Positions 52,688-52,879 of a DNA stretch of 64,000 bases are shown here, in pieces. The notes below the pieces were generated by a model. That model was given only the letters and a program-made list of their open reading frames with translations. It made no database searches and was not told where the DNA came from. Numbering within the stretch: position 1 is the first letter of the stretch; each line of letters opens with the position of its first letter. Source of the DNA: Eledone cirrhosa (Eukaryota); NCBI GenBank assembly GCA_964016885.1, contig OZ024747.1:61690001-61754000 (forward strand), written 5' to 3'. A program made the position numbers and the translations under genes.

Positions 52688-52879
52688 GAAGGAGTTGTGG
52701 TAAGGAACCAGATGGACCATAACGCACCAGAGTACTCAATACTTAGGGTAGTAGAGTGGGTAATAGGAGAAAGTATGACCCCGACAGCAGAGCTCAAGCC
52801 GTTTTGGTGGCTATTTCTGGACTCGAAATAGCCGTCGAAACGGCTTGAGCTCTGCCGTCGGGGTCATACTTTCTCCTAT
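52688..52879 (-). mobile_element. (TA)n-embedded fold-back element containing a hammerhead 3' half
   Basis: 55-bp arms 52763-52817 and 52825-52879; right arm has GAAA-CGGC(UUGAGCUCU)GCCG-UC-GGGGUC. Confidence 0.85.

Follow-up and report, generated by a model that had tools for sequence, protein, structure and literature searches.

How a retroelement comes to be inserted as a palindrome is the question raised by a short element at 52685-52879 of a 64,000-nucleotide (nt) stretch of the Eledone cirrhosa genome (assembly GCA_964016885.1, contig OZ024747.1, positions 61,690,001 to 61,754,000; hereafter the window). The preliminary description of this stretch, made from the letters only, had noted two inverted arms carrying half of a hammerhead ribozyme, and had proposed that complementary DNA (cDNA) primed at a (TA)n microsatellite runs into the ribozyme, folds back on the hairpin of its stem II and primes its own second strand. 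The palindrome itself is confirmed, and the interpretation is partly supported: the positional regularity is real, whereas the proposed mechanism is refuted. The arms stop near a fixed position that is probably the capped transcription start of a Penelope-like element (PLE), and the palindrome would then consist of two separately primed cDNAs joined end to end, an account that we consider probable. The preliminary description was right that the inversion arises at insertion.

The head-to-head insertion and its parent element

The arms (52763-52817 and 52825-52879) measure 55 nt each, the length given in the earlier description, with a loop of 7 nt between them, and as DNA the palindrome folds with z = -15.8, none of 200 shuffles folding equally well. 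Each arm reads as the 3' half of a hammerhead, with GAAA (52837-40 in the right arm), stem III CGGC/GCCG, GTC and GGGGT, and with the palindromic GAGCTC in the stem III loop of both arms. No CUGANGA core lies within 52685-52879, the palindromic copy having only 3' halves, which is how the arms had first been read. The assignment of the apex to stem/loop II needs correction: the apex does lie on the 3' strand of stem II, but not in loop II, as the junction is different in each copy and the loop II of the parent is absent. The element (195 bp) is asymmetric, the left arm going on through a 78-nt tail to 52685 and the right arm ending in CCTAT, and both outer ends adjoin (TA)n.

Searching the 3.0-Gb genome with a 192-nt query yielded 1,774 candidates; 40 of them underwent scoring, and 30, chosen by likeness to the query, were retrieved. 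In this set the outer ends are identical and the bases at the apex vary from copy to copy. The 23-nt tail motif of this first family has 40,769 exact genome matches, sister subfamilies counted in, and the short head-to-head stumps are very abundant, with many thousands of insertions of an element that is itself of a known kind. The near-identical length and outer ends of the 30 best-scoring copies would fit a DNA transposon of the miniature inverted-repeat (MITE) type, with fixed terminal inverted repeats and a constant interior, or else a fold-back artefact of the assembly. However, the outer ends are not inverted repeats of one another, and the element is therefore not a MITE; in addition, copies vary in their centre, a reverse transcriptase (RT) is encoded in the parent, and the fixed ends at +61 (numbering as defined below) and at the end of the tail recur as loose ends in independent sequencing runs. 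Fixed terminal inverted repeats common to all copies, which the preliminary description had named among the marks of a MITE, are not the picture found here, and we regard this explanation as already refuted.

Longer copies extend upstream into common sequence. One of them, L094, is a long head-to-head copy with frames of RT and GIY-YIG type, and L160 continues beyond the tail into an open reading frame (ORF), open across all 467 amino acids (aa) covered; a search aimed at read-through beyond the tail returned mostly (TA)n variants, and the continuation came from L160. The RT and the C-terminal GIY-YIG domain of endonuclease-bearing (EN+) PLEs are represented by YRDD in L160 and YIGxT in L094, motifs drawn from different copies, no single copy having been read intact from end to end. 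A pseudo-long terminal repeat (pseudo-LTR) with a hammerhead, the tail that is optional in such elements and the inverted 5'-truncated copy are likewise present, in keeping with the PLE suggested at the outset. The GIY-YIG match in Pfam (E = 0.069) falls short of the cut-off and the RT was not recognised in Pfam and PDB sequence searches, so the EN+ PLE assignment rests on motifs. The ORF of L160 has RWR at aa 37 (R for the K of RWK) and DKT at aa 117, and the endonuclease frame of L094 has a CxCX5C linker, CxxC and CxH around the conserved E and N, and no CCHH. On these motifs and the (TA)n targeting we assign the element to the Hydra clade, as that clade is characterised by Craig et al. 2021 (PMC8557442), where the C-terminal GIY-YIG, RW[RK], DKT, CxCX5C, CxxC and CxH, the lack of CCHH, (TA)n targets, pseudo-LTR hammerhead, inverted 5'-truncated copy and one-ended tail are all found alike.

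The hammerhead of the parent is complete, comprising stem I (ACCCC/GGGGU), stem III and a long stem II that contains an inner hairpin, so that the motif in the arms is indeed the 3' half of a real hammerhead. The three helices, 3-8 pair, GAAA and UH of a type I hammerhead are all found, and the minimum free energy structure is a three-way junction, with a stability no better than that of shuffles (z -1.2 and -0.6). The core is UUGANAA (U3-A8) in 27 of the 39 parent-type sequences, 8 having no core match and 4 other forms; U3-A8 is a described variant among PLE hammerheads (PMC4209133). Looking for parents with CUGANGA upstream of the stem, the check proposed earlier, gave three matches, none of them the parent, because the parent core is U3-A8; the complete ribozyme that the check presupposed does exist in the real parents. 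Among the 150 best of 312 Rfam matches for the window, the hammerhead family is absent and only chance microRNA- or small nucleolar RNA-type matches occur. A relative of the first family at L031:1500-1551 (minus strand) reads CTGATGAG in its left part, ahead of a different stem. This is the sole canonical-looking core found; the relative perhaps represents a sister subfamily, or else the junction arose by chance.

The fixed arm end and the extra G

Arm ends were mapped in 99 elements from the first 100 tail matches, all within the first 17 Mb of one contig, taking the A of TYAGTC as +1 (L126 and L127 are one tail-to-tail element counted twice, and the tail-arm ends of L109, L112 and L121 were set by eye). 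Tail arms reach beyond -200 in 9 of the 99; an adjacent inverted arm accompanies 76 of the other 90, and ends at +61 or +63 in 69 of these 76. The outer ends are fixed, at +61 and about +139, and the junction is set copy by copy. Among 175 arm 5' ends, 105 fall in -4 to +9, 4 in -10 to -5, 1 in -39 to -11, 10 beyond -40, and 55 downstream of +9. The breakpoints are strongly non-random, as had been claimed, and they form a cliff at +1 instead of marking a turn on a stem. Across +1, contig depth increases by a factor of more than 20 in two outside runs, a poor measure, and contigs of four sequencing runs, which cannot show RNA starts, hold almost no strand-change joints.

A fold-back on stem II requires the cDNA to have passed loop II and the 5' strand of the stem, and its product must therefore keep loop II at the apex. 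The corresponding pattern has a single genome match, running into ORF sequence, against 31,767 arms, and the interval -39 to -11, where the turn would fall, holds the one end counted above. It is true that the parent has a long stem II at the place of the apex, that breakpoints cluster there in the first and second families, that both arms are of one subfamily (see below), and that 2-3 of 100 longer-copy rows turn, by eye, at the inner hairpin of stem II; yet a third family turns upstream of the entire ribozyme. The enrichment at stem II that the preliminary description asked about is thus real in two families and fails in the third, where the arms end upstream of the whole ribozyme, and we give ribozyme-guided snap-back almost no weight, except as a rare side route at most.

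The +1 site reads TTTAGTC or TTCAGTC, lies 231 nt 5' of the ATG of the ORF, and resembles an initiator; a TATA-like sequence, TATT(T/C)A(T/A) or TATATAT, stands at -29 to -32 in 37 of 39 parents. The parent base at -1 is T or C in all 39 and G in none, and the arms behave differently. Genome-wide, the base before +1 is G 6,014 times and A 997 times, with the parent-like TTY context at 16,919, whereas at a control position before +6, which is also an A, G occurs 764 times and A 550, an excess of G of about 6:1 at +1 versus 1.4:1 at +6. None of the 30 inspected copies with the G runs on into parent sequence. When an arm is joined directly to (TA)n neither the target nor the parent supplies the G, and among the first 100 of 777 such rows, counted by hand, the base at -1 is G in 18, C in 7, A in 4 and T in 71. 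The window copy carries the extra G itself, at 52824. Reverse transcriptases can copy the RNA cap as an extra G, and the G found here is likely a reverse-transcribed cap. Runs of A or T, up to about 20, also occur directly at +1 in the arm-match rows (for instance L056), which suggests untemplated tailing of the cDNA end.

The third family, with 12,703 tail matches in the genome, has a canonical hammerhead with a short stem II, and its arms begin at or just past an A that precedes the core by six bases. The interval -6 to +9 takes in the ends of 12 of 30 tail arms and of 11 of 16 inverted-arm calls, and 8 tail arms run through. In 6 of these 8 run-through copies a TATAAATA box begins, by eye, at -30, and G precedes the +1 A 1,668 times versus 399 for A and T together, so that the excess of a G absent from the parent is present at -1 in two families. 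As the apex here lies upstream of the whole ribozyme, the feature common to the families is a promoter-like start and not stem II. The preliminary description had placed the turn of this family in the core itself (45127-45138); a palindrome is present there, but its arms keep TGATGA and turn at the 5' edge of the core, and elsewhere the turn lies upstream. The second family (258 genome matches) is older, and its parents have a canonical CUGAUG(A/U) core upstream together with a TCAGTC initiator-like site; its palindrome at 14311-14432, already recognised as the same geometry in a different family, was found to follow the same design.

Several points weigh against taking +1 as a start site and the G as a cap. 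The TATA-like box of the first family is the stem II strand itself, selected by the search pattern and hence not independent; in two third-family run-through copies TATA lies at -24 and -37, and in the window copy at -32; and the second family has an initiator-like site without a clear TATA. The +6 control also leans to G, by about 46:24 in a hand count that leaves out 30 rows representing point changes in longer arms, and about one third of the 30 inspected Gs could be templated from the opposite arm. Some arms end at -1 to -4, with either added A's or true upstream sequence. Both the start site and the cap are read from DNA, and for the copying of a cap as an extra base a literature search gave no relevant paper. 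The fixed end could, alternatively, be an RT stop or a nuclease cut in RNA structure, with the extra G as an untemplated terminal C; the first family does end at the base of the inner hairpin of stem II, untemplated A or T runs are seen at the same junctions, and the control site prefers G mildly. On the other hand, the third family ends in no shared helix and instead 30 nt below a canonical TATA box, the G excess at +1 far outstrips that at +6, and the site is an initiator-like A upstream of an ORF. We therefore consider such a stop or cut unlikely, and a capped start the better account of the cliff.

A further, weaker step in the 5' ends lies at the cleavage triplet. At 54 distinct loci (hand count of the first 100 rows, from a search pattern that favours short inserts), 22 tail arms start exactly after GUC (+42), 17 at +43 or +44, 12 are scattered over +28 to +41, and 3 are ambiguous; L105, L113, L149 and L176 are examples of this second step right after GUC. 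It is a hint of in vivo ribozyme cleavage of read-through RNA, or of an RT pause at the base of stem III that would look alike.

One cDNA or two

Arm concordance was assessed in 49 pairs, of which 34 had a readable label on both arms and 15 were omitted. All 34 readable pairs have arms of one subfamily (against a mean of 11.0 and a maximum of 21 after shuffling), and both arms thus come from one source element. The lengths of the arms are less uniform: of 76 elements, 26 have a tail-less arm that exceeds the tail arm by at least 10 nt, 7 show the reverse, and in 12 the tail arm stops at or beyond +58 with the inverted arm present. The extra G is on the tail-less arm in 13 of the 30 inspected copies and on the tailed arm in 17, and 287 junctions have it on both arms, mostly with 1-2 bases between. 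Two cDNAs yield the unequal-arm and double-G forms as a direct consequence, and a single folded strand would hardly give them.

The single-strand alternative is a tail-primed cDNA that reaches the RNA 5' end, folds through a microhomology of 1-4 bases, copies itself and switches to (TA)n at +61. Arm concordance fits such a snap-back equally well, which counts against two cDNAs, as do later deletions within palindromes, which may add to arm asymmetry. The short overlaps at many junctions and the near-symmetric elements (43 of 76) would be explained too, and a self-priming account of PLE palindromes is already in print, an antisense template that primes itself having been put forward as the source of the palindromic junctions of Adineta vaga Penelope (Arkhipova et al. 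2013, PMC3846280). This route cannot, however, give the longer tail-less arm, or an inverted arm when the tail arm stops inside the tail; it does not readily account for tail-less arms with the extra G, or for junctions where both arms have it, 0-2 nt apart; and it leaves the tail-to-tail copies (45000-45250; L126/L127) unexplained. In our view a fold-back at the RNA 5' end is improbable, and two separately primed cDNAs are to be preferred.

Two such cDNAs could arise as follows. The pseudo-LTR promoter would start a capped RNA at the A of TYAGTC, within hammerhead stem II; a transcript starting there would hold half a ribozyme and so be unable to cleave itself in cis. Probably acting as a dimer, the element protein would cut both (TA)n strands and prime one cDNA at the tail end and one at +61. 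Both cDNAs would reach the RNA 5' end, where the cap would often be copied as an extra base and A's might be added, and their 3' ends would be joined to give the palindrome, either because the RT jumps from the end of one template to the end of the other or through host end-joining that trims a few bases. A tail-primed copy stopping early, often near the internal primer, would leave unequal arms. In the twin priming of L1 both target strands likewise prime cDNA and an inverted 5' part is joined by microhomology; there the parts do not overlap and the internal site is variable, whereas in the present element a fixed internal site is used and the same 60 nt up to the 5' end are usually spanned by both cDNAs.

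Copies in the window and relation to known elements

Table 1. Features of the palindromic insertion and of related copies, in window coordinates
Feature	Position	Strand	Basis
Short head-to-head insertion of Hydra-clade PLE (assigned on motifs), whole	52685..52879	.	Same outer ends in (TA)n or similar microsatellite and variable centre in 30/30 fetched best copies
Tail-bearing arm, in RNA sense: extra G, +1 A (52823), stem II 3' strand, hammerhead 3' half, tail	52685..52824	-	Compared with parent copies
78-nt tail (+62 to +139), bounded by two putative reverse-transcription start sites	52685..52762	-	Single arm only in typical copies; runs on into 5' untranslated region and ORF in L160
Extra G immediately 5' of +1, absent from parent, putative RNA-cap copy	52824	-	-1 is T or C in 39/39 parent-type sequences; genome counts
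Tail-less arm, +7 to +61, ends CCTAT joined to (TA)n	52825..52879	+	Equivalent end (+61 or +63) in 69/76 inverted arms
Type I hammerhead 3' half: GAAA, stem III with palindromic GAGCUC loop, GUC cleavage triplet, stem I 3' strand	52837..52864	+	Parent folds as three-way junction, U3-A8 core
(TA)n target, left flank	52664..52684	.	Sequence
(TA)n target, right flank	52880..52944	.	Sequence
First-family copy, tail only	10887..10973 (approximate ends)	-	Sequence comparison
Second family, same design: tail arm ends +4; tail-less arm starts +1 (14370) of TCAGTC initiator-like site; parent with CUGAUG(A/U) core	14229..14432 (approximate outer ends)	.	Sequence comparison
Third family, tail-to-tail palindrome, both arms start +8 (TGATGA), arms differ by indels	45000..45250 (approximate outer ends)	.	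Sequence comparison
Third-family copy running through promoter: TATAAATA at -32, +1 A at 50573, complete canonical hammerhead	50541..50640	+	Sequence comparison

The third-family copy at 45000-45250 has the tail on both arms, and these differ by two indels and several substitutions, as if from two different RNAs. The otherwise different tails of the three families (52688-52762, 14250-14310, 45010-45060) have the motif TAT(T/C)GAGTAC in common, a candidate protein-binding or priming signal. Other repeats share the microsatellites of the window: short retroelement-like 3' ends with (GAT)n tails are stacked repeatedly within (TA)n runs at 52945-53000 and 45280-45570, likely from an unrelated long or short interspersed nuclear element that uses the same microsatellites. 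At 60625-60960, inverted arms of 168 bp flank (TA)n and represent two copies, in opposite orientation, of another repeat in one microsatellite; this repeat differs from the PLE families here and is also found beside L032, L131 and L144. A perfect 41-bp inverted repeat with a 14-nt loop lies at 39337-39432, and similar sequence flanks L008.

Comparisons with published systems refer to the portions of the cited papers available to us. PLEs are known to have tails, to insert at (TA)n and to carry inverted 5'-truncated copies, and the origin of their inverted and tandem ends has been named an open problem (PMC8557442). Set against the Hydra-clade elements of that paper, the present one has a tail of about 78 nt and not 30-40, a U3-A8 core with a long stem II, copies that are mostly stumps of about 200 bp, and a probable start inside the ribozyme. 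In vitro, reverse transcription by a Poseidon PLE of Anolis, PAc, begins at two sites bounding the tail, and each strand of the target is cut and extended (Frangieh et al. 2024, PMC11167929); the two fixed RT start sites flanking the tail, the use of both target strands and the dimer, predicted for PAc, are all as proposed here, PAc being of another clade and the portions consulted not dealing with an extra G, the 5' end of the RNA or inverted junctions. Adineta vaga Penelope has head-to-head pseudo-LTRs, junction palindromes, and TATA and initiator-like motifs in the pseudo-LTR (PMC3846280), as in our families, but in the present element a sense capped template copied twice is the reading indicated by the extra G and the unequal arms. 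An internal promoter with initiator and downstream promoter element is known for Penelope (PMC2377424). Among PLE hammerheads (Cervera and de la Pena 2014, PMC4209133), the U3-A8 core, the extra base at the 5' end of stem II, the short stem I and the palindromic loop 3 recur, and pairs of motifs on opposite strands were noted; in contrast, stem III is 4-6 bp here and stem II is long and overlaps the putative promoter. A literature search covering open articles, main text only, found nothing that connects a capped start or an extra G with the inverted junctions of PLEs.

The extra G at one position, on either or both arms, in thousands of independent insertions of two families, speaks for a capped, sense template that is primed twice, and reading the palindrome as two cDNAs links the two-site, two-strand priming seen in vitro (PMC11167929) to a genomic structure. 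We see it as an even matter whether this extends to PLEs in general, whose head-to-head ends would then be the fossil record of an intermediate in which one dimeric complex holds two cDNAs on both target strands, copied from sense capped RNA and joined at the cap; with the promoter within stem II, the element's own transcripts would escape self-cleavage while read-through RNA is cut, giving the second ends at GUC. A start site inside the ribozyme would be a simple account of when the hammerhead can or cannot cut. The extra-G test needs DNA only and is applicable to any PLE-rich genome, and, if the proposal is true, the centres of palindromes genome-wide would map the transcription start of each PLE family to the base.
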